Of a DNA stretch of 38,194 bases, positions 3,252 through 37,497 are shown piece by piece. The position numbers and the translations under genes are program-made. The stretch's first letter is position 1. The number at the start of each line of letters is the position of its first letter. The notes under the pieces were generated by a model. That model ran no database searches and was not told the origin of the DNA. It worked only from the letters and a program-made list of their open reading frames with translations. Source of the DNA: a virus (taxonomy: Duplodnaviria > Heunggongvirae > Uroviricota > Caudoviricetes). The stretch is taken from the IMG/VR virus record IMGVR_UViG_2537562192_000020, one strand, 5' to 3'.

Positions 3252-3920
3252 TTAACTTTCTGCCGCCAAAGTGCCGCCACTGCATTTGTCGCCTAAACGC
3301 CTATTTGAAACGATTAATCTCTCGGCGATCTTAATCTTGGAGAGCTTATCTAGGCAGATAAAGCATATTGCTACTCCCGATACCACAAAATAGCTGCTTA
3401 AACCAAAGTATTGCCAAGTAGTTAGATGGTTTATCTTCTCCATCATCTTAGCACTTACTACAACAGAATAACTGAAAGGAAGTGCTACGATGAGACTGCC
3501 CATGAAGTAAATTAGAGTTGTTATAATTTTTATTAATTTTCTATATATGCTGTATTTATATCTTTTTTTATTCCATGCGAATATTTCTTTATGGGTGGTA
3601 ATGGAAATTAGACTTTGACATTTGGAATAATCATCTATATCGCTAACGGGGTTTGTTGTGTTGAGTAATATTAATCTTTGTTTTTTTGTCAATGTGTTAT
3701 CTTTGGTTAATGCAGCAATGCCGTAATCTTCCGCCAGTTTTTTGAAGGTCGGATCTTCACTGCTTTTATACATCTGATATGAAAATTCGCTAATGTTTTT
3801 ACGTGATGTGAATAGTTTGTCTTTTTTATAAGTCCACCCTGTTTTAAGCCCTAATAAGGATATAATGGCAGATAGGGAAGGGAATAATATTTTTATAAGT
3901 AACTCTAGTTCGCTATTCAT
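3252..3920 (-). CDS. hypothetical membrane protein (AT-rich moron between int and attL)
   Basis: 222-aa ORF with about 3 predicted hydrophobic helices; strongly AT-rich relative to the phage backbone; GAGGT RBS before ATG at 3920; immediately downstream of int on the same strand. Confidence 0.55.
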   Translation of the reverse strand: MNSELELLIKILFPSLSAIISLLGLKTGWTYKKDKLFTSRKNISEFSYQMYKSSEDPTFKKLAEDYGIAALTKDNTLTKKQRLILLNTTNPVSDIDDYSKCQSLISITTHKEIFAWNKKRYKYSIYRKLIKIITTLIYFMGSLIVALPFSYSVVVSAKMMEKINHLTTWQYFGLSSYFVVSGVAICFICLDKLSKIKIAERLIVSNRRLGDKCSGGTLAAES

Positions 3921-3930
3921 AAATTACTAC

Positions 3931-4947
3931 TTACCTCAAATTAAATAAAGGATTTTTAGTTACGGCATCTTCTAAATGGTCTGGGGCGAAGTGTGCATAG
4001 ACCATGGTCATTTTTATATCTGAATGTCCTAGGATATCCCGCAAAACCAATATGTTTCCACCATTCATCATAAAATGGCTAGCGAATGTATGACGCAGAA
4101 CGTGAGTACATTGACCCTCTGGCAGATCGATACCAGCCCGCTTTACTGCACGCTCAAAGGCTTTTCTGCATGGGGTGAATAACTTCCCCCTATTCTTAGG
4201 CAGTTCTTCATATAAATCCTTAGAAATAGGCACAGTTCGGTTTTTCTTGCCTTTGGTCTTGGTATAAGTGATACGGTATTTTGATACCTGATGACTCTGC
4301 AGGTTTTCGGCTTCGCTCCAGCGTGCGCCGGTGGCCAGGCATATTTTTGCAATCAAAAGCAGGCTGGAGCTTTGAGAATCGGCGCAGGCATCCAGCAGAC
4401 GTTTAATTTCTTCCGGGGTCAGGAACGCCAATTCACTCTCAGCAATTTTAAATGTTGGCAGCCCAGCAAGCGGGTTGGGGGCTGACCAGTGGCCCAGCTT
4501 TTTCAGTGTACCAAAAACAGATGATAGATTGCGCTGTTCAAGGTTTACCGTGCGGGGCTTAACGGGCGACATAAACGTGCCATCTTCATTTCGTACTTCA
4601 CCTTTTAACCGTGCTTCGCGGTATTTCGTAAAGTCACCGGCTGTCAGTTCTGAAGCGATGGGATCGCCTAGACCATTACAGATAATTCTAAGTTTCGCTA
4701 TGAGGCGCTTGGGGTCTGCGAGTGTTTGACCATACAGGGAATACCACTGCTCAATTAATTCTGATAGGTGTCGCCGATCTTCCTTTTCCCCCAGCCATGG
4801 TTTTTTGTTCACTTCTTCCATTGTGAAGCTTTCAAAAGCAATGGCTTCGCCTTTCGTAGCAAATTGCTTACGCACGCGCTTGCCATTGCGTCCATTGGGA
4901 TAGCACTCGCACAACCATTTACCGTTTGGCTGTTTTCTGACAGTCAT
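3931..4947 (-). CDS. int: tyrosine integrase (P2/186 Int family)
   Basis: 338 aa; C-terminal R...HxLRHT...Y catalytic signature (VLRHTFASHF...MVYAH); adjacent to att repeat. Confidence 0.9.
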   Translation of the reverse strand: MTVRKQPNGKWLCECYPNGRNGKRVRKQFATKGEAIAFESFTMEEVNKKPWLGEKEDRRHLSELIEQWYSLYGQTLADPKRLIAKLRIICNGLGDPIASELTAGDFTKYREARLKGEVRNEDGTFMSPVKPRTVNLEQRNLSSVFGTLKKLGHWSAPNPLAGLPTFKIAESELAFLTPEEIKRLLDACADSQSSSLLLIAKICLATGARWSEAENLQSHQVSKYRITYTKTKGKKNRTVPISKDLYEELPKNRGKLFTPCRKAFERAVKRAGIDLPEGQCTHVLRHTFASHFMMNGGNILVLRDILGHSDIKMTMVYAHFAPDHLEDAVTKNPLFNLR

Positions 4948-4949
4948 GT

Positions 4950-5582
4950 TTAGATACTCTTTATTACTTTGACTGCACGCCCAATAACTTCCACATCATC
5001 AGCAGAGCACTCGAAAGACGCTTCATCTTGATTTACTACAATCTTATTGCCGGGAATCCGCATGATTTTTGCAATAATAATCATTCCATCAATATTGATA
5101 AGCCAGAATCCATTGCTGACTTGTTTAACTGATTTATCGATGAGATAACAATCAGTAGGGGTTTCTAAGAACATCGATTCTTCATAATCTGCAGGTAATA
5201 TGCTGTGGTCTAGGAAAATCTCTTCATCAATACTGAGTTGTCCATTTTCCAAGGTTCCTTTAGGAATAGATGGAGTTATGAGTTTGGATAACGGTTTAAT
5301 TGCTTGTTTGTTCTCGTTATGAGATCTTTTCTCAGGCTCGTATCCTTCTTTCATGCTTCCCTGTCCAGTGGCTAACCAAAGTAACGAAACACCGGTTTCT
5401 AGTGCACACTGAATTATCCAGTCAGCAGGAAAACTGTCACGTAACACTCTGTTTGCCATAGTACTTTTTGAGACATTCAGGTGCTCGCTTAATGCCTGCT
5501 TAGTTGTGAATCCATAAGCCTCAAGCAGCCTCTCAATAGCTGCCTTACCTCCCGTATCGGAACCCATTCTGATGTTTAACAT
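4950..5582 (-). CDS. cI: CI-type immunity repressor (186 CI-like)
   Basis: 210 aa with N-terminal HTH (LSEHLNVSKSTMANRV); positioned between int and divergent early operon as in phage 186. Confidence 0.7.
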   Translation of the reverse strand: MLNIRMGSDTGGKAAIERLLEAYGFTTKQALSEHLNVSKSTMANRVLRDSFPADWIIQCALETGVSLLWLATGQGSMKEGYEPEKRSHNENKQAIKPLSKLITPSIPKGTLENGQLSIDEEIFLDHSILPADYEESMFLETPTDCYLIDKSVKQVSNGFWLINIDGMIIIAKIMRIPGNKIVVNQDEASFECSADDVEVIGRAVKVIKSI

Positions 5583-8078: not shown

Positions 8079-8932
8079 GCACCATCCTGAAATGGGCGGG
8101 TAATAAAACCGCCATTATGTCCGAACTGAAAAAACACCTTCCTGCAGGCCCGCGACTGGTTGAACCTTTCGCGGGTTCTTGTGCTGTGATGATGGAGACG
8201 GATTACCCCAGCTATCTGGTTGCGGATATTAATCCTGATTTAATCAACCTCTATAAAAAGGTTGCCGCTGATTGTGAATCGTTTATATCTCGCGCCAGAG
8301 TTTTATTTGAGATCGCAAACAGGGAGGTGGCTTATTACAACATAAGGCAGGAGTTTAATTACTCCACTGAAATTACTGATTTCATGAAAGCGGTATATTT
8401 CCTGTATCTCAATCGTCACGGTTACCGTGGTTTATGTCGCTATAACAAGAGCGGGCATTTCAACATTCCCTACGGTAATTATAAAAATCCGTATTTCCCT
8501 GAAAAAGAACTTCGCACATTTGCAGAAAAAGCCCAGCGAGCAACGTTTATCTGCGCAAGCTTTGATGAAACGCTGGCGATGCTGCAGGTGGGGGATGTGG
8601 TGTATTGCGATCCGCCGTATGACGGTACGTTTTCCGGCTATCACACTGATGGTTTCACTGAAGATGACCAGTATCACCTGGCATCCGTTCTTGAACATCG
8701 GTCATCAGAAGGACATCCGGTCATTGTTTCTAACAGTGATACATCCCTGATCCGTTCGCTGTATCGCAATTTTACTCACCACTACATCAAGGCAAAACGC
8801 AGCATCGGTGTAGCAGCTGGTGAGAGTAAATCTGCAACAGAAATCATCGCTGTTTCCGGGCCGCGCTGCTGGGTGGGATTTGATCCTTCGCGTGGCGTGG
8901 ATAGTTCTGCCGTGTACGGAGTGCGTGCATGA
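8075..8932 (+). CDS. dam: DNA adenine methyltransferase (Dam-like, D12 class N6-MTase)
   Basis: N-terminal KWAGNK...EPFAGS AdoMet motif and DPPY catalytic motif ([10 protein letters not shown]). Confidence 0.8.
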
Positions 8933-11343
8933 GCCATGCTGATATGAACAACTGCAGCGGCTTTAACGAGGTCGCCGCAGCATTCTCATGGAACAGCCCG
9001 AAAAAGGCCATTAACCCTTATCTGGACCCGGCGGAAGTTGCGCCGGTTTCTGCGCTTTCAAACCTGATCACTCTGTACGCTACCGATAACGAGCAGGAAC
9101 AACTGCGCCGCGAGGCTCTGAGTGATCAGGTATGGGAGCGTTATTTCTTTAATGAATCACGTGATCCTGTCCAGCGCGAAATGGAGCAGGATAAGCTCAT
9201 TAGCCGGGCAAAGCTGGCGCATGAGCAGCAGCGTTTTAATCCGGGCATGGTCATTCTGGCGGACGTTAACGCCCAGCCTTCCCATATCAGCAAGCCGCTG
9301 ATGCAACGTATTGAATACTTCAGCAGCCTGGGCAGGCCAAAGGCTTATTCCCGCTATTTGCGTGAGACGATTAAGCCATGTCTGGAACGACTGGAGCATG
9401 TACGCGACAGTCAGCTATCCACTTCTTTTCGCTTTATGGCAAGCCATGAAGGGCTGGACGGTCTGCTGATCCTGCCTGAAATGAGTCAGGATCAGGTGAA
9501 ACGCCTGTCCACCCTGGTAGCTGCGCATATGAGCATGTGCCTTGATGCCGCTTGTGGCGATTTGTATGCCACCGATGACGTTAAGCCAGAAGAAATCCGC
9601 AAGACATGGGAAAAGGTGGCGGCGGAAACCCTGCGACTGGATGTCATACCGCCTGCGTTTGAGCAACTCCGCCGGAAAAGAAACCGCCGTAAACCCGTGC
9701 CCTATGAACTCATTCCGGGGTCGCTGGCGCGTATGCTGTGCGCCGACTGGTGGTATCGGAAATTGTGGAAGATGCGTTGCGAATGGCGGGAAGAGCAGTT
9801 GCGTGCTGTTTGCCTGGTCAGCAAAAAAGCATCTCCCTATGTCAGCTATGAAGCCGTGATGCATAAACGTGAGCAGCGCCGTAAGTCGCTGGAGTTTTTC
9901 CGTTCTCATGAACTGGTGAACGAAGACGGCGACACGCTGGACATGGAGGATGTGGTAAACGCCAGCAGCAGCAACCCTGCGCATCGCCGCAATGAGATGA
10001 TGGCCTGTGTTAAAGGTCTGGAGCTTATCGCGGAAATGCGCGGTGACTGCGCCGTTTTCTACACCATCACCTGTCCGTCACGTTTCCATTCCACGCTAAA
10101 TAACGGTAGGCCCAACCCGACCTGGACAAATGCGACGGTAAGACAAAGCAGTGATTATCTGGTCGGCATGTTTGCTGCATTTCGTAAGGCGATGCACAAA
10201 GCCGGGTTGCGCTGGTATGGCGTGCGGGTGGCTGAGCCGCATCATGACGGCACAGTTCACTGGCACCTGTTGTGTTTCATGCGCAAAAAAGACCGCCGCG
10301 CCATTACTGCATTGTTGCGTAAGTTTGCTATCCGTGAAGACCGCGAGGAGCTGGGTAATAACACGGGGCCACGCTTTAAGTCTGAGCTGATAAACCCGCG
10401 CAAAGGAACGCCGACTAGCTACATCGCGAAATACATCAGTAAGAACATTGACGGGCGTGGTCTGGCTGGCGAGATCAGCAAGGAAACGGGTAAATCTCTG
10501 CGTGATAACGCTGAATACGTTAATGCCTGGGCGTCTCTGCATCGTGTTCAGCAATTCCGCTTCTTTGGCATTCCGGGGCGTCAGGCTTACCGTGAACTGC
10601 GATTGCTGGCTGGTCAGGCGGCAAGGCAACAGGGTGACAAAAAAGCAGGTGCGCCGGTACTGGATAACCCGCGCCTTGATGCCATTCTGGCTGCAGCTGA
10701 TGCTGGTTGTTTTGCCACCTACATCATGAAGCAGGGCGGCGTACTGGTTCCCCGTAAATATCACCTCATCAGAACCGCTTATGAAATCAACGAAGAGCCG
10801 ACCGCCTATGGCGATCACGGCATTCGTATTTATGGCATCTGGTCACCCATTGCAGAGGGCAAAATCTGCACTCATGCCGTGAAGTGGAAAATGGTTCGTA
10901 AGGCCGTTGACGTTCAGGAGGCGGCAGCCGACCAGGGCGCTTGCGCCCCTTGGACTCGTGGCAATAACTGTCCCCTTGCTGAAAATTTGAACCAACAAGG
11001 GAAAGACAAATCAGCTGATGGGGATACCAGAACGGATATCACCCGCATGGATGACAAGGAGTTGCACGATTACCTGCACAGTATGAGCAAAAAAGAACGC
11101 CGGGAACTGGCAGCAAGGTTACACCTGGTTAAACCGAAACGGTGTAAAGACTACAAACAGCGAATTACAGACCATCAGCGACAGCAGCTCGTGTATGAGC
11201 TGAAGTCCAGAGGGTTTGATGGTAGCGAGAAAGAGGTCGATTTACTCCTTCGCGGCGGCAGTATTTCGTCAGGAGCAGGCCTGCGTATCTTCTATCGGAA
11301 CCAGCGTTTGCAGGAAGATGATAAGTGGCGAAACCTGTATTAA
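8929..11343 (+). CDS. A: replication initiation endonuclease gpA (rolling-circle initiator)
   Basis: 804 aa; HUH-type region (VHWHLL) and YIAKYISK tyrosine motif typical of P2/186 A. Confidence 0.85.
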
Positions 11344-11437
11344 TTACGATGGTTAACCATTCGTGCTCTTAATAATACCAGGCATATCAGGCTGATAAAC
11401 GTAAAAAAACGTTTTACATCAGTAAGATTATTATATA

Positions 11438-11453
11438 CTGTAATTATAAACAG
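11438..11453 (+). promoter_or_regulatory. LexA (SOS) box overlapping promoter of DinI/Tum-like operon
   Basis: CTGTAATTATAAACAG = exact CTGT-N8-ACAG; TTTACA -35-like hexamer at 11413-11418 upstream. Confidence 0.7.
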
Positions 11454-11496
11454 TGGTTATACATACAGTATTGCGTGTGGTGTCATAGGAGGAAAG

Positions 11497-11685
11497 ATGC
11501 AGGACTATTTTTTGGAGTCTTTGAAGCTCCAGCGCATTGATTTTTTTCTTAAGCTTGTAGCGGCCAGTGAGTGTAGTGATGAAGAGAAGGGACTGGCTCT
11601 GCAGTGGGTTTCTGAATTGACTGATGAACTCATGGCAAAAATCAGAAGCCACGAATACAACCGCTCAATGGATGTCATCAGCTGA
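11497..11685 (+). CDS. small SOS-controlled protein (first gene of Tum-like operon)
   Basis: 62 aa; GGAGGAAAG RBS; directly downstream of LexA box. Confidence 0.5.
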   Translation: MQDYFLESLKLQRIDFFLKLVAASECSDEEKGLALQWVSELTDELMAKIRSHEYNRSMDVIS

Positions 11686-11695
11686 GGTGACTTTT

Positions 11696-11929
11696 ATGCG
11701 CATTGAAATAATGATCGATAAAGAGCAGAAGATTAGCCAGTCTACCCTGGACGCCCTTGAATCCGAGCTTTACCGTAATCTGCGCCCCCTGTATCCCAAA
11801 ACGGTAATTCGTATCCGCAAAGGTAGCTCTAACGGTGTGGAACTGACCGGACTGCAACTGGACGAAGAAAGGAAGCAAGTGATGAAAATTATGCAGAAGG
11901 TGTGGGAAGACGACAGCTGGCTGCATTAA
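11696..11929 (+). CDS. DinI-family protein (186 Tum-like antirepressor module)
   Basis: MRIEIMIDK...KIMQKVWEDDSWLH resembles E. coli DinI; GAGGTGA RBS. Confidence 0.7.
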   Translation: MRIEIMIDKEQKISQSTLDALESELYRNLRPLYPKTVIRIRKGSSNGVELTGLQLDEERKQVMKIMQKVWEDDSWLH

Positions 11930-12064
11930 GAAACGTTGCTGGCGTCTGAACTTGTTTCTGGCGTCAGCAAGGTTGAACAACGAGCCCTTGCGAGGCGTTA
12001 GCTCTGTAGTGCATGTCTATGCCGCATGAGATCGCATGATCGTTTGAGGATCGTTTTTGCTAAG

Positions 12065-12088
12065 GCCCGCCAGAACTGGTGGGCTTTT
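12065..12088 (+). terminator. rho-independent terminator after Tum-like operon
   Basis: GCCCGCCAG-aact-CTGGTGGGC (one G-U pair) followed by TTTT. Confidence 0.55.
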
Positions 12089-12133
12089 GCGTAGATCATG
12101 CAGGTGCATGAAAACCACTACATAAAGCGGGCA

Positions 12134-12152
12134 GGCGTGGCGGGGATACGAG
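12134..12152. other. candidate cos site (cohesive-end sequence of P2/186 type)
   Basis: GGCGTGGCGGGGATACGAG; first 13 nt match my recollection of the 186/P2 19-nt cohesive end (GGCG[T/A]GGCGGGGAAAGCA). Confidence 0.45.
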
Positions 12153-12292
12153 CGCGCGCCGAAGCGATTACGTAAGAGTTTTGGCTATTGATGTCATAGT
12201 GAACTTAATGATGGAGAAAGTGTCAACCTATGTGTAAACTACAGTTAGTAAGATAAAGAGATATGAGATGAAACAATTTCAAGGAGGGCGGC

Positions 12293-13102
12293 ATGAGTAC
12301 TAACAGCGAACGTATGTCCAATGCGCCCGTTTACTATGCATTGGTACAGGTAAAGTTTACTCCAATAGCTGCAATGAGTAAGTATGTTCCAGACATACAA
12401 GATGCGCTAAGAGTTGAGGGATTTCCTTTATTTGAGGTTTCCAATACAACTCAGTTGAAATTTGAAATAAAAAACCCCAATGAGCCACCGGTACATTCAT
12501 TTGAGCCTGTGACAAGTTGGTTGATGATTGATGCAGATAGAAGATCTGGTTTTGTTTTAGGCAACGATTTCATTACGTTCCATACAACATATTATGATAA
12601 CCATGTATCTTTCATCTCGTCATTGATACTTGGTCTGAGCAAAGTTCTAGAATTTGCTAAGCCATCGCTGTTAAGTCGGATTGGGCTTCGATATTTGGAT
12701 GCTGTGTTTCCTGAGAAAAGCGAAACAATTGAGCAGTATCTTGTAAAGGAACTTCATGGTGTTGATTTCGGATGGACGCCAATACAGTCTATACAAGAGT
12801 CCGTATATCAGACATGTGTTGAGCCATTGATCCCTAATGGATTTATGGTTTCACGAATACATAAGATGAATGGTCAGCTAGGTTTTCCGCCAGATATGAT
12901 TCCTAATGGTTTACTGCCGTTGCCGAGATTTAGTAACACAGAGCATCGTATGCACGCAATAATTGATACAGATCATTATGTTGAAGGCAACATGTCAACT
13001 GATTTGCAGTTAATTGAAAAACAGATTCTTTCGTTGCATAGTAAAGTTAAAGAAGCATTTGAAGGCATGGTTTCAGATTTTGCCCGTACTAAATGGCACT
13101 GA
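12293..13102 (+). CDS. hypothetical protein, cargo gene 1 of cos-proximal cassette
   Basis: 269 aa; AGGAGGG RBS; AT-rich; contains RIGLRYLD segment; no similarity to P2/186 core proteins recognised. Confidence 0.7.
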   Translation: MSTNSERMSNAPVYYALVQVKFTPIAAMSKYVPDIQDALRVEGFPLFEVSNTTQLKFEIKNPNEPPVHSFEPVTSWLMIDADRRSGFVLGNDFITFHTTYYDNHVSFISSLILGLSKVLEFAKPSLLSRIGLRYLDAVFPEKSETIEQYLVKELHGVDFGWTPIQSIQESVYQTCVEPLIPNGFMVSRIHKMNGQLGFPPDMIPNGLLPLPRFSNTEHRMHAIIDTDHYVEGNMSTDLQLIEKQILSLHSKVKEAFEGMVSDFARTKWH

Positions 13103-13121
13103 AACAACGGAGGTGACTAAA

Positions 13122-13784
13122 ATGTATGCAATTCCCACCGGAAGCATAGGCTCTGTAGATCGATATTCTCCAAATTTGCAGTCAAGCTCATGTGTATCAG
13201 GTGTTGTTGCTGTCGCCGCATCTTTACTATTAGTTGGTACGGGGGCTTCATACCCTGTAAATGCTTATAAGCAATGGCGTCAGTATGTTCAGCCAAGGGT
13301 TCAGTTTGCATTTGATTCCATAGAATCAACGTACACGCCTGCAATTTCTCCTGAGGTTGATGTCAGGAATGTTGCCCAACATTTAGCTAATATTCGAGAA
13401 GTGCTGTCTCCATCAATGTCAGAACTGGCAAAGGATTTGGGGATAACTCGGCAGGCTCTCTATAAATGGTTGTCAGGGGAGAACCAGCCTGATGATGCTT
13501 CAAAAGTGCAATTCATTACCAACCTTAGTAATGTCGCTGACTCTTTTTCCAAAGCTGGACTCCATGATGCGAAGCTATTGGTGAAAATGAAAGCATTTAA
13601 TGGTAAGTCATTAATGGACGTAGTAAAAGAAGGTGAGGATTGGAATAGGGCAGTTCAGGTATTGATTGATGAAGCTAAAGCGATGAATGCTGCTGCTGAA
13701 TCGGCCAATTACTTAGCAAGCAAGGCGAAACCGACAGATGATTGGAAGTCATCTATTTCAATTCCTGGAACGGTAGAGGAATAA
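13122..13784 (+). CDS. hypothetical HTH (XRE-type) protein with N-terminal hydrophobic segment, cargo gene 2
   Basis: GGAGGTGA RBS 9 nt before ATG 13122; hydrophobic stretch VSGVVAVAASLLLVGTGA; HTH SMSELAKDLGITRQALYKWL. Confidence 0.6.
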   Translation: MYAIPTGSIGSVDRYSPNLQSSSCVSGVVAVAASLLLVGTGASYPVNAYKQWRQYVQPRVQFAFDSIESTYTPAISPEVDVRNVAQHLANIREVLSPSMSELAKDLGITRQALYKWLSGENQPDDASKVQFITNLSNVADSFSKAGLHDAKLLVKMKAFNGKSLMDVVKEGEDWNRAVQVLIDEAKAMNAAAESANYLASKAKPTDDWKSSISIPGTVEE

Positions 13785-13793
13785 ATCACATTT

Positions 13794-14642
13794 ATGTTGG
13801 TACGAGGAACATCATGGCGTCAGGGGCATGTACTTAAACATGATGATGCCGTTTCACTTGGAATTCTGCAGCCTGATGAAACGAACCATAAAGTTGTAGT
13901 TATAACGCATGATTGTGATTTACAGAGTAATTCAGAAAAAAACGTGGAACTGATGTTTGGCCCCTTGAAAAAGGGGTCAAGCAGGATGAAAAGAGCTAAG
14001 CATCCGAGAATACTCGATCTATGTTTTGAAAACCCAGAAAGTGCGAAGAAGAATGCAGTAGAGCTCCGGCATGAAAGGAAAGTCATCATTCCTAAAGAAG
14101 CTTTCTGTTGTGAGGAAAACGATCCAGCATTCTCCATTAGCACAGAAGAGAAACAAGCTCTTAAGCAATGGTTAGCTGCTAAGTATGGTCGTCCAGCGTT
14201 TCCTAACTCGTTTGAAGAGCGCTTGCGGGCTTACGACGAGGATAAAAAGTTTATTTTCGAAAAAGAAGTTGCGGATATTATCGCCACAAACGCAGAGCAT
14301 TTGATCGGAGTTTTTTTCGATTTGGGCGAAGAAAGATTTAACGATCTTGAGGAAGGCATACCATATGAGCTTTCTATCAATGTTGTTTATGATGCAACTG
14401 AAGGTGGCCCCGATGCCAGAAGAGCGGCTGAACAAACATGTTCTGATCTAAAGGCTTTGTTTTATAAGTTTTATGGTGATCCAACCTTGGGGCATTCAGA
14501 ACTTATAGAATTGAATACGTGCATAGCTGTTGCTGATACTCATTTCTCCCTGTATGCATTGAGGCGGATGGATCAATGGAGGGTAGAATACATCAGCCTT
14601 GAAGAAGATTCATATGGCGATTTCATTGGTGCCGGTGTTTAA
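13794..14642 (+). CDS. hypothetical acidic protein, cargo gene 3
   Basis: 282-aa ORF 9 bp after gene 2; no recognisable motif. Confidence 0.55.
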   Translation: MLVRGTSWRQGHVLKHDDAVSLGILQPDETNHKVVVITHDCDLQSNSEKNVELMFGPLKKGSSRMKRAKHPRILDLCFENPESAKKNAVELRHERKVIIPKEAFCCEENDPAFSISTEEKQALKQWLAAKYGRPAFPNSFEERLRAYDEDKKFIFEKEVADIIATNAEHLIGVFFDLGEERFNDLEEGIPYELSINVVYDATEGGPDARRAAEQTCSDLKALFYKFYGDPTLGHSELIELNTCIAVADTHFSLYALRRMDQWRVEYISLEEDSYGDFIGAGV

Positions 14643-37134: not shown

Positions 37135-37179
37135 TGGTGGAGCTGGCGGGAGTTGAACCCGCGTCCGAAATTCCTACAT
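37135..37179. repeat. prophage attachment-site direct repeat (right copy) = 3' end of intact ssrA
   Basis: Identical to 3122-3166. Confidence 0.85.
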
Positions 37180-37497
37180 CCTCGGTACTACATGCTTAGT
37201 CAGTCTTTACATTCGCTTGCCAGCTGCGGACGGACACGCCACTAACAAACTAGCCTGATTAAGTTTTAACGCTTCAACCCCAGGCAGGGCTTCCACGCGA
37301 TCTCTTTTGGGTTTGACCTCTCTTGATCCCCGTCCTAAGAGCGGAGGCTAGGGAGAGAGGGCTCTAAGCAGGTTATTAAGCTGCTAAAGCGTAGTTTTCG
37401 TCGTTTGCGACTATTTTTTGCGGCTTTTTACGAGGCCAACCGCCCCTCGGCATGCACCTTGGGTTTCGCAAATCCCGTCGAATCCAGAATCAGCCCC
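37135..37497 (-). ncRNA. ssrA: tmRNA (SsrA), 363 nt
   Basis: Reverse complement begins GGGGCUGAUUCUGGAUUCGAC and ends ...GUUCAACUCCCGCCAGCUCCACCA, matching my memory of E. coli tmRNA. Confidence 0.95.

Follow-up and report, generated by a model that had tools for sequence, protein, structure and literature searches.

Phage 186 carries the operon p95-tum-orf97 downstream of gene A, at the right end of its genome, with a LexA site lying over the TACTGT −10 hexamer of p95. The 186 Tum protein counteracts CI by sequestration (PMC7708051; PMC3121763). It is a single protein of 146 aa, with additional internal starts, in which an N-terminal part is fused to a DinI-like part. Fels-2 and PSP3, by contrast, have two genes in place of tum, namely tumA and a dinI-like gene, under a LexA-controlled promoter (PMC3121763). 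The PSP3 record annotates the split genes as tumA and tumB, and STM2726.1 is the dinI-like gene of Fels-2. The primary source for the split of tum in Fels-2 is reportedly Bunny et al. 2002. For DuoHS, a prophage of E. coli HS, either an in-frame deletion of tum or lexA(Ind-) abolishes mitomycin-C-induced lysis (PMC12055606). LexA-repressed small antirepressors directed against non-cleavable prophage repressors are also found in Gifsy-1/2/3 (gfoA/gftA/gfhA) and in N15 (AntC), and in the Gifsy operons a dinI homologue shares the operon with the antirepressor (PMC3121763). These systems differ from the locus described here in that dinI comes first, reversing the gene order, and in that the antirepressors, the repressor family and the phage type (lambdoid) are unrelated.

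We analyzed a stretch of DNA of 38,194 nucleotides, hereafter the window, which is a P2/186-like prophage of the Fels-2/186-like kind (Peduoviridae). Its landmarks are as follows.

3931-4947, minus strand: int
4950..5582, minus strand: CI immunity repressor, 210 aa, the presumed target of TumA
8929-11343: replication endonuclease gene A (Pfam Phage_GPA, 1.4e-127)
37135-37497: tmRNA gene, marking the far side of the prophage

Genes resembling apl/cox and cII, together with further early genes, run rightward after int-cI, and the module of interest is placed after gene A and before cos, a layout that is the same in 186. We consider it very probable that this region is the SOS-induction module of the prophage, with a promoter kept shut by LexA and with the product of the first gene, TumA, acting against CI. 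A mechanism of this kind is already known from 186, Fels-2, PSP3 and DuoHS, and for an identical protein. What the present locus adds is of modest interest: a double operator, a −10 hexamer within LexA box 1, a relationship to 186 Tum at the profile level only, the dispensability of DinI, an operon boundary at cos, and the mixing and matching of TumA with CI. The module, 781 bp in length, is present in 1143 of 5426 complete E. coli genomes, and also in many Klebsiella and Salmonella phages. For comparison, we assembled 35 loci, comprising 33 that were fetched (one per bacterial species, each encoding a relative of the 62-aa protein), the window, and Fels-2. An Rfam search over the whole window gave no match in 11300-12300, and PADLOC gave no convincing match for the neighbouring cargo genes.

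A LexA-type promoter and its predicted double operator

The predicted control elements upstream of the first gene are listed below.

11413..11418, plus strand: −35 hexamer TTTACA, read from the sequence 17 nt upstream of TACTGT; equivalent of that of 186 p95
11436..11441, plus strand: −10 hexamer TACTGT, the left arm of LexA box 1, assigned by its likeness to annotated 186 p95
11436..11455, unstranded: LexA box 1, TACTGTAATTATAAACAGTG, with its core 16-mer at 11438-11453
11451..11470, unstranded: predicted LexA box 2, CAGTGGTTATACATACAGTA, with its core 16-mer at 11453-11468; 15/20 to the consensus
11487..11492, plus strand: Shine-Dalgarno sequence AGGAGG of tumA, read from the sequence and kept in the compared loci

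The initial annotation had reported an exact CTGT-N8-ACAG match at 11438-11453 and, upstream of it, a promoter-like TTTACA at 11413-11418. Both observations were borne out: the core 16-mer, CTGTAATTATAAACAG, is the sole CTGT-N8-ACAG in the window, and TTTACA is a −35 hexamer at a conserved spacing. The bare pattern is not significant alone, with a mean of 0.6 occurrences per shuffled window and at least one occurrence in 43 of 100 shuffles. The significance of box 1 comes instead from its consensus score, from a phylogenetic footprint, from the near-identical promoter of the HS prophage, and from an architecture like that of p95. When every 20-mer of the 38 kb was compared with the LexA consensus of 20 nt, TACTGTATATATATACAGTA, no more than two scored at least 15/20, and these overlap each other: 11436-11455 (16/20) and 11451-11470 (15/20). 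The numbers expected from shuffles are 0.115 at a threshold of at least 15/20, and 0.005 at a threshold of at least 16/20.

Box 1, searched for as CTG-N10-CAG no more than 130 nt upstream, occurs in 33 of the 35 loci, and all but one of these 33 have a −35-like hexamer at an offset of −24 to −26 (mostly −25) from it. The string TATACTGT, which includes the −10 region, is invariant in nearly all compared loci. Across the 35-locus comparison, information content per position is 1.57 bits in box 1 and 1.52 bits in the −35 hexamer, as against 0.57 bits in the spacer and 0.32 bits downstream of the boxes; the spacer and the 5′UTR vary among loci while the −35 hexamer keeps its 17-nt spacing. The outcome is a clean phylogenetic footprint. 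The same arrangement is annotated in the 186 GenBank record, where p95 has the −35 hexamer TTCACA, an 18-nt spacer and the −10 hexamer TACTGT, which also serves as the left half of the LexA site TACTGTATGTTTATACAGTA. A promoter was not called here by a generic sigma-70 scan; the reason is that the −10 hexamer is the weak TACTGT arm of a LexA box, a design that 186 p95 shares. Between the window and the E. coli HS prophage, promoter and operator differ by one base, which falls in the spacer of box 1.

The initial annotation had described one LexA box over the promoter. The overlap with the promoter stands, with the −10 hexamer TACTGT lying inside box 1, but the single box gives way to two overlapping ones. 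The core 16-mer of box 2 is GTGGTTATACATACAG; G11453 is common to both boxes, and box 2 has GTG where the canonical CTG is expected. Together, the boxes form an overlapping double operator for LexA at 11436-11470 whose geometry is that of colicin promoters; box 2 of the window is a predicted site. In a BLAST search against plasmids, the 56-nt operator region matched ~700 small Col-type plasmids at 80-90% identity, and in the two that we inspected, a klebicin/cloacin-type gene and a colicin E1-type gene follow the match at a distance of 40-50 nt. Within the operator, the alignment is free of gaps, with ~83% identity over 42 nt (TATACTGTAATTATAAACAGTGGTTATACATACAGTAT in comparison with TATACTGTATATAAAACCAGTGGTTATATGTACAGTAT). 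In the colicin and klebicin promoters, as in the window, the two 16-mers share one base, their centres are 15 bp apart, and the second begins with GTG; the downstream genes, however, are unrelated. The likeness may be convergent, since LexA recognition dictates most of the positions that match. Colicin double operators are bound by two LexA dimers (PMC2994835). By analogy with the colicin genes, the double operator of the window is expected to keep the promoter very tightly repressed and to set a high threshold of damage.

The double form was found in 24 of the 35 loci, in Escherichia, Salmonella, Citrobacter, Klebsiella, Enterobacter, Serratia and others. Eight loci, from Pantoea, Erwinia and Tatumella, have box 1 only, and 186 and PSP3 also have a single LexA box. 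The distance from the box to the start codon is 36-39 nt in single-box loci and 52-67 nt in double-box loci. A MAFFT alignment placed the single box of 186 and PSP3 over box 2 of the window; we rejected this placement, an artefact that arises because the alignment is anchored at the start codon. Based on the −35/−10 geometry and the box-to-start distances, the 186 box corresponds to box 1 of the window. A literature search with the operator sequence string returned irrelevant matches only, and a search for overlapping LexA sites together with prophage or antirepressor returned no description of a double operator at tum. A paper on the Salmonella SOS regulon (PMC8072944) used a strain that lacks Fels-2, and contains nothing for the tum locus.

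The 62-aa protein and its probable remote link to phage 186 Tum

Two genes follow the promoter.

11497..11685, plus strand: tumA, a 62-aa antirepressor gene of the Fels-2 STM2728 / DuoHS tum type
11696..11929, plus strand: dinI-like gene, 77 aa, the equivalent of PSP3 tumB and of the C-terminal half of 186 Tum

These are the two small ORFs in different frames to which the initial annotation had drawn attention, and our coordinates agree with it. It had presented the separation of a putative antirepressor from a DinI-like protein as a departure from 186; separate genes are the documented state of Fels-2 and PSP3 (PMC3121763) and are not peculiar to the window. TumA is 100% identical to ECHS_RS04495, the 'Tum' of DuoHS, and 97% identical to Fels-2 STM2728. 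The primers used to construct the delta-tum strain, given in a preprint (PMC11195241), match the window exactly at 11477-11499 plus TGA, and at 11683-11705, indicating that the gene deleted in HS is this 62-aa ORF. Induction by mitomycin C and dependence on lexA(Ind-), both of which follow from the SOS route that had been proposed for the window, have been published for the identical protein in the form of an induction phenotype, measured as lysis and virion formation (PMC12055606). The published HS genetics establish a need for the gene in induction rather than its target. Delta-tum cells still turn on an SOS reporter (PMC12055606); they still mount an SOS response, and TumA therefore does not act at the level of RecA or LexA.

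The DuoHS module as a whole is very close to that of the window, with both TumA and the DinI-like protein 100% identical and with the same position between gene A and cos. DuoHS differs in its CI, in its attachment site and in its cargo genes. Fels-2 has the same double operator and a DinI-like protein that is 100% identical. PSP3 is less similar, with a TumA only ~22% identical to that of the window.

The initial annotation had pointed to 186 tum as the relative to align with. The alignment holds for the DinI part, which covers residues 71-145 of 186 Tum at 41% identity, but not for the 62-aa part: BLASTP of TumA against 186 Tum gave no alignment, and we rejected direct sequence similarity between the two, leaving links at the profile level only. 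TumA matches phrog_698 (6e-38), phrog_8554 (1e-8) and phrog_1993 (2e-3), and the N-terminal 61 residues of 186 Tum match the same three profiles in the same register (phrog_1993, 1e-22; phrog_8554, 1e-11; phrog_698, 2.4e-5). Using hhalign, a 17-species TumA alignment matched residues 1-64 of 186 Tum end to end with E=5e-4, at a probability of only 30%; the corresponding match to PSP3 TumA (E=0.082) is too weak for use. Two sequence features are also common to TumA and the N-terminal half of 186 Tum, namely the motif (I/L)A(I/L)xx(I/V)(S/A)E and a Cys that is conserved. TumA is likely to be a remote homologue of the N-terminal half of 186 Tum.

Searches of Pfam, NCBIfam and PDB sequences with TumA returned no match. 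The AlphaFold model of the protein is a two-helix hairpin (pLDDT 91.5), and its length is 62 aa in 30 of the 35 loci. A search of 5.8 billion proteins yielded 483 relatives of TumA. Nearly all of the 120 that were listed are unnamed or 'hypothetical', with one named 'Levan regulatory protein' in UniRef, and none of these 120 is fused to DinI.

The DinI-like gene, the operon end and cos

The dinI-like ORF begins 10 nt after the TGA stop codon of tumA, in another frame, and its ribosome-binding site, GAGG at 11684-11687, shares bases with the tumA stop codon. Its assignment to the DinI family, which the initial annotation had made from the sequence, is upheld by Pfam DinI (PF06183), with E=6.6e-23 and 81.3 bits against a gathering threshold of 24.2, over profile positions 1-63 of 63. 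The protein also matches the structure of E. coli DinI (1GHH, E=2.7e-6). Against the NCBIfam equivalog for chromosomal DinI, its score of 42.7 bits falls short of the cut-off of 111 bits, and the protein is therefore a paralogue and not dinI itself. A dinI-like gene lies 8-12 nt after tumA in 22 of the 35 loci, in all three relative frames, indicating that the split is old and stable and not a recent frameshift of a fused gene.

In the remaining 13 loci, tumA is intact and a dinI-like gene is absent. The retention of TumA without any DinI gene is the first of several observations that bear on whether the DinI-like protein, alone or together with TumA, could be the real inducer, with the 62-aa ORF serving mainly to couple dinI expression. 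The overlap between the dinI ribosome-binding site and the tumA stop codon means that translation could be coupled, and 186 Tum has a DinI part in the same polypeptide. We nonetheless find this explanation hardly credible. The upstream gene of PSP3 has been reported to have antirepressor activity, and the induction of Gifsy prophages is unaffected when dinI is removed by non-polar deletion (PMC3121763). The HS tum deletion removes the region just upstream of dinI and leaves the dinI ribosome-binding site and start codon intact; an effect of the deletion on dinI translation is formally conceivable. Based on its absence from 13 of 35 loci and on the Gifsy deletions, the DinI-like protein is probably an accessory modulator of RecA filaments and not the trigger.

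Three features mark the end of the operon.

11932..11974, plus strand: stem-loop immediately following the dinI stop codon and lacking a U-tract, seen in a fold of 11920-12110
12062..12088, plus strand: terminator-like GC-rich hairpin followed by TTTT, seen in the fold and the sequence
12134..12152, unstranded: phage cos, GGCGTGGCGGGGATACGAG, 15/19 identical to annotated 186 cos, with homologous flanks

The RNA fold of 11920-12110 has a z-score of −3.2 relative to shuffles. The stretch that forms the first stem-loop is not conserved in E. coli HS, where a third gene is found instead, and this structure is possibly an RNA-stabilising hairpin or a partial terminator. By contrast, the second hairpin is kept in E. 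coli HS, with two differences in the stem that retain pairing (G-U in the window, G-C in HS), and it has a T-run on the plus strand only. A terminator scan that needs 5 T did not call this hairpin. It is likely to form the 3′ end of the SOS transcript, judging from its predicted fold and its conservation. The hairpin lies ~45 nt before cos, which is the right end of the mature genome and the boundary of the operon.

Members of this family use the slot between dinI and cos for cargo. DuoHS, Fels-2 and Klebsiella phages carry an extra, variable gene of 225-243 aa between dinI and the conserved hairpin-cos block; in DuoHS it is lipoprotein-like, and in Fels-2 it encodes 243 aa. Orf97 follows tum in 186, and we considered whether the third genes of Fels-2 and HS are its homologues; they are unrelated to 186 orf97, and this possibility was rejected. 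The extra gene is absent from the window, for which a two-gene operon, as initially described, is correct, while its relatives have the additional gene.

This missing gene could be taken to mean that the module is a silent remnant in which the motifs are intact but have no functional consequence. We regard that as very unlikely, for several reasons. None of the parts is disrupted, from the promoter, the operator and the two ORFs to the terminator, cos and CI, and these parts are nearly identical to the functional versions in DuoHS, with the exception of CI itself (41%). The layout of ORFs from int to the tail genes appears complete. In the one clearly decayed locus of the 35, from Siccibacter, tumA and the LexA box have both gone, unlike in the window.

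CI, its pairing with TumA and the proposed route to induction

The CI of the window lies next to int, in the int-cI / apl-cII layout typical of 186, and is 60% identical to Fels-2 CI, 41% identical to E. coli HS CI, and 32% identical to 186 CI (E=4e-36). The proposal in the initial annotation that the prophage is induced by a LexA-controlled antirepressor, as in 186, is supported both by the need for the identical HS protein in mitomycin C lysis (PMC12055606) and by the membership of this CI in the 186 family.

We surveyed the pairing of TumA with CI in 80 viral contigs and E. coli HS. TumA proteins 97-100% identical to that of the window were found with all three classes of CI, and, conversely, the same CI was found with TumA variants of 84-100% identity. 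Identical TumA proteins pair with CI repressors that are only 41-60% identical. Across the partner classes, the N-terminal domain of CI is 64-78% identical, and the C-terminal domain 31-63%. The pattern of conservation suggests that TumA recognises the conserved N-terminal domain of CI, and that it could act across immunity types.

The same pairing data can be read differently. TumA might induce the prophage through a target other than DNA binding by CI, such as degradation of CI, the CII or Apl proteins, or a host factor. The finding of identical TumA with CI proteins 41-60% identical is unexpected for a highly specific protein-protein interaction, the similarity of TumA to 186 Tum is remote, and the identical HS protein has been described only as one that 'inhibits pro-lysogenic regulators' (PMC12055606). 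However, the position, regulation and profile homology of TumA are held in common with 186 Tum, whose anti-CI action is established biochemically, and the N-terminal domain of CI, at 64-78% identity, provides a conserved docking surface. We consider a target of this other kind unlikely, and prefer inactivation of CI by TumA.

We propose the following route to induction. In an undamaged cell, LexA would occupy the two overlapping boxes at 11436-11470, covering the −10 hexamer and the start of the transcribed region, and would keep the promoter shut. Upon DNA damage, activated RecA would promote self-cleavage of LexA, and the sigma-70 promoter would fire. The resulting short transcript, which we infer to run from ~11448 to ~12090, would encode TumA and the DinI-like protein. 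TumA would then inactivate the 186-type CI encoded at 4950-5582, by analogy with 186 Tum most likely through reversible, stoichiometric binding that prevents CI from binding its operators. Inactivation of CI would de-repress the early lytic promoter, leading to excision and lytic growth. The DinI-like protein would probably modulate RecA filaments, and in this way the strength or duration of the SOS signal.

A further possibility, which we put forward tentatively and hold to be somewhat less probable than its opposite, is that TumA of the Fels-2/DuoHS type is a broad-specificity antirepressor acting on the N-terminal DNA-binding domain of CI, and that the double operator sets a higher damage threshold than the single box of 186, PSP3 and Pantoea. 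In our literature searches, we did not find a broad specificity of TumA or a threshold set by the double operator stated. If this possibility is true, heteroimmune P2-like prophages that reside together in one cell could be induced by a single TumA.

The analysis identifies how the prophage in the window senses DNA damage, which helps in annotation and in the prediction of induction by antibiotics. It also exposes an annotation gap: roughly one in five complete E. coli genomes encodes TumA, RefSeq calls it 'hypothetical protein', and it is without a family name in Pfam, NCBIfam and RefSeq, a gap that is worth closing. The occurrence of double and single LexA operators is a natural series for the study of induction thresholds, and the association of identical TumA with divergent CI is a natural series for the study of cross-induction between prophages.

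Prophage flanks and cargo genes

Several features lie at the two ends of the prophage:

1-462, resuming at 1776-2606 and 2635-2961, interrupted ORF for an autotransporter-like repeat protein (region 1-2961)
469-816 and 936-1682, ORFs of an IS3-type element that splits the autotransporter-like ORF
3252-3920, minus strand, 222-aa membrane-like ORF between the prophage end and int
37135-37497, minus strand, tmRNA gene ssrA, full length (295.8 bits in Rfam)

The tmRNA gene adjoins the late-gene end of the prophage, and we take it to be the likely attachment site, as for Fels-2. At the other end, the 222-aa ORF is a predicted moron adjoining the integrase gene, for which PADLOC gave only a faint 1TM-TIR match (E = 0.007). 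The IS3-type element contains a full-length match to the Rfam family 'isrC' (501-623).

A cargo cassette was found between cos and the portal gene:

12293-14642, cassette of three genes
within 12293-14642, gene for a 269-aa protein (RefSeq 'TIGR04255 family protein')
within 12293-14642, gene for an HTH regulator
within 12293-14642, gene for a 282-aa protein, its only match a weak one in PHROG

Of 5426 complete E. coli genomes, only 18 carry the cassette at full length, and no PADLOC defence model matched it. It lies at a known P2 variable locus and may be a defence or moron cassette.

The region between dinI and cos

Sequence comparison with the cos site of coliphage 186 located the cos site of the prophage, and a stem-loop was found between it and dinI:

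11932-11974, stable stem-loop lacking a U-tract, directly 3' of the dinI stop codon
12134-12152, phage cos site, GGCGTGGCGGGGATACGAG

The window and 186 cos sites are identical at 15 of 19 positions, with homologous flanks. A non-coding block of ~150 nt 3' of dinI is conserved among relatives because the cos site is located there. The 3' region of the SOS operon as a whole folds better than shuffled sequences (z = -3.2).

We compared window positions 11930-12010 with the equivalent regions of the E. coli HS prophage DuoHS (L042:25053-25900), Fels-2 (L003:2993-3724) and a Klebsiella phage (L123:2205-2882). In DuoHS, Fels-2 and Klebsiella phages, dinI and cos are separated by a third gene, which is variable and encodes 225–243 aa; that of DuoHS is lipoprotein-like in appearance. 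By contrast, the window has no third gene between dinI and cos. The third genes have no homology to 186 orf97, ruling them out as its homologues. Overall, the dinI-cos slot looks like a cargo site within the SOS-controlled transcription unit.

Decay of the SOS module and pairing of TumA with CI

The sole decayed copy of the SOS module was in Siccibacter turicensis (L039:1400-1560), where a truncated tumA of 20 codons is accompanied, at the same locus, by a degenerate LexA box. This joint decay is consistent with tumA and the LexA box being maintained together.

Among 80 viral contigs (L043-L122) and DuoHS, TumA identical or near-identical to that of the window (11497-11685) was found with CI from each of three classes, whose identity to the CI of the window (4950-5582) is about 100%, 60% or 41%, and the N-terminal domain of CI was conserved far better than the C-terminal domain. 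Together, the pairing of TumA with three CI classes and the pattern of CI domain conservation hint that cross-induction might occur between heteroimmune P2-like prophages.
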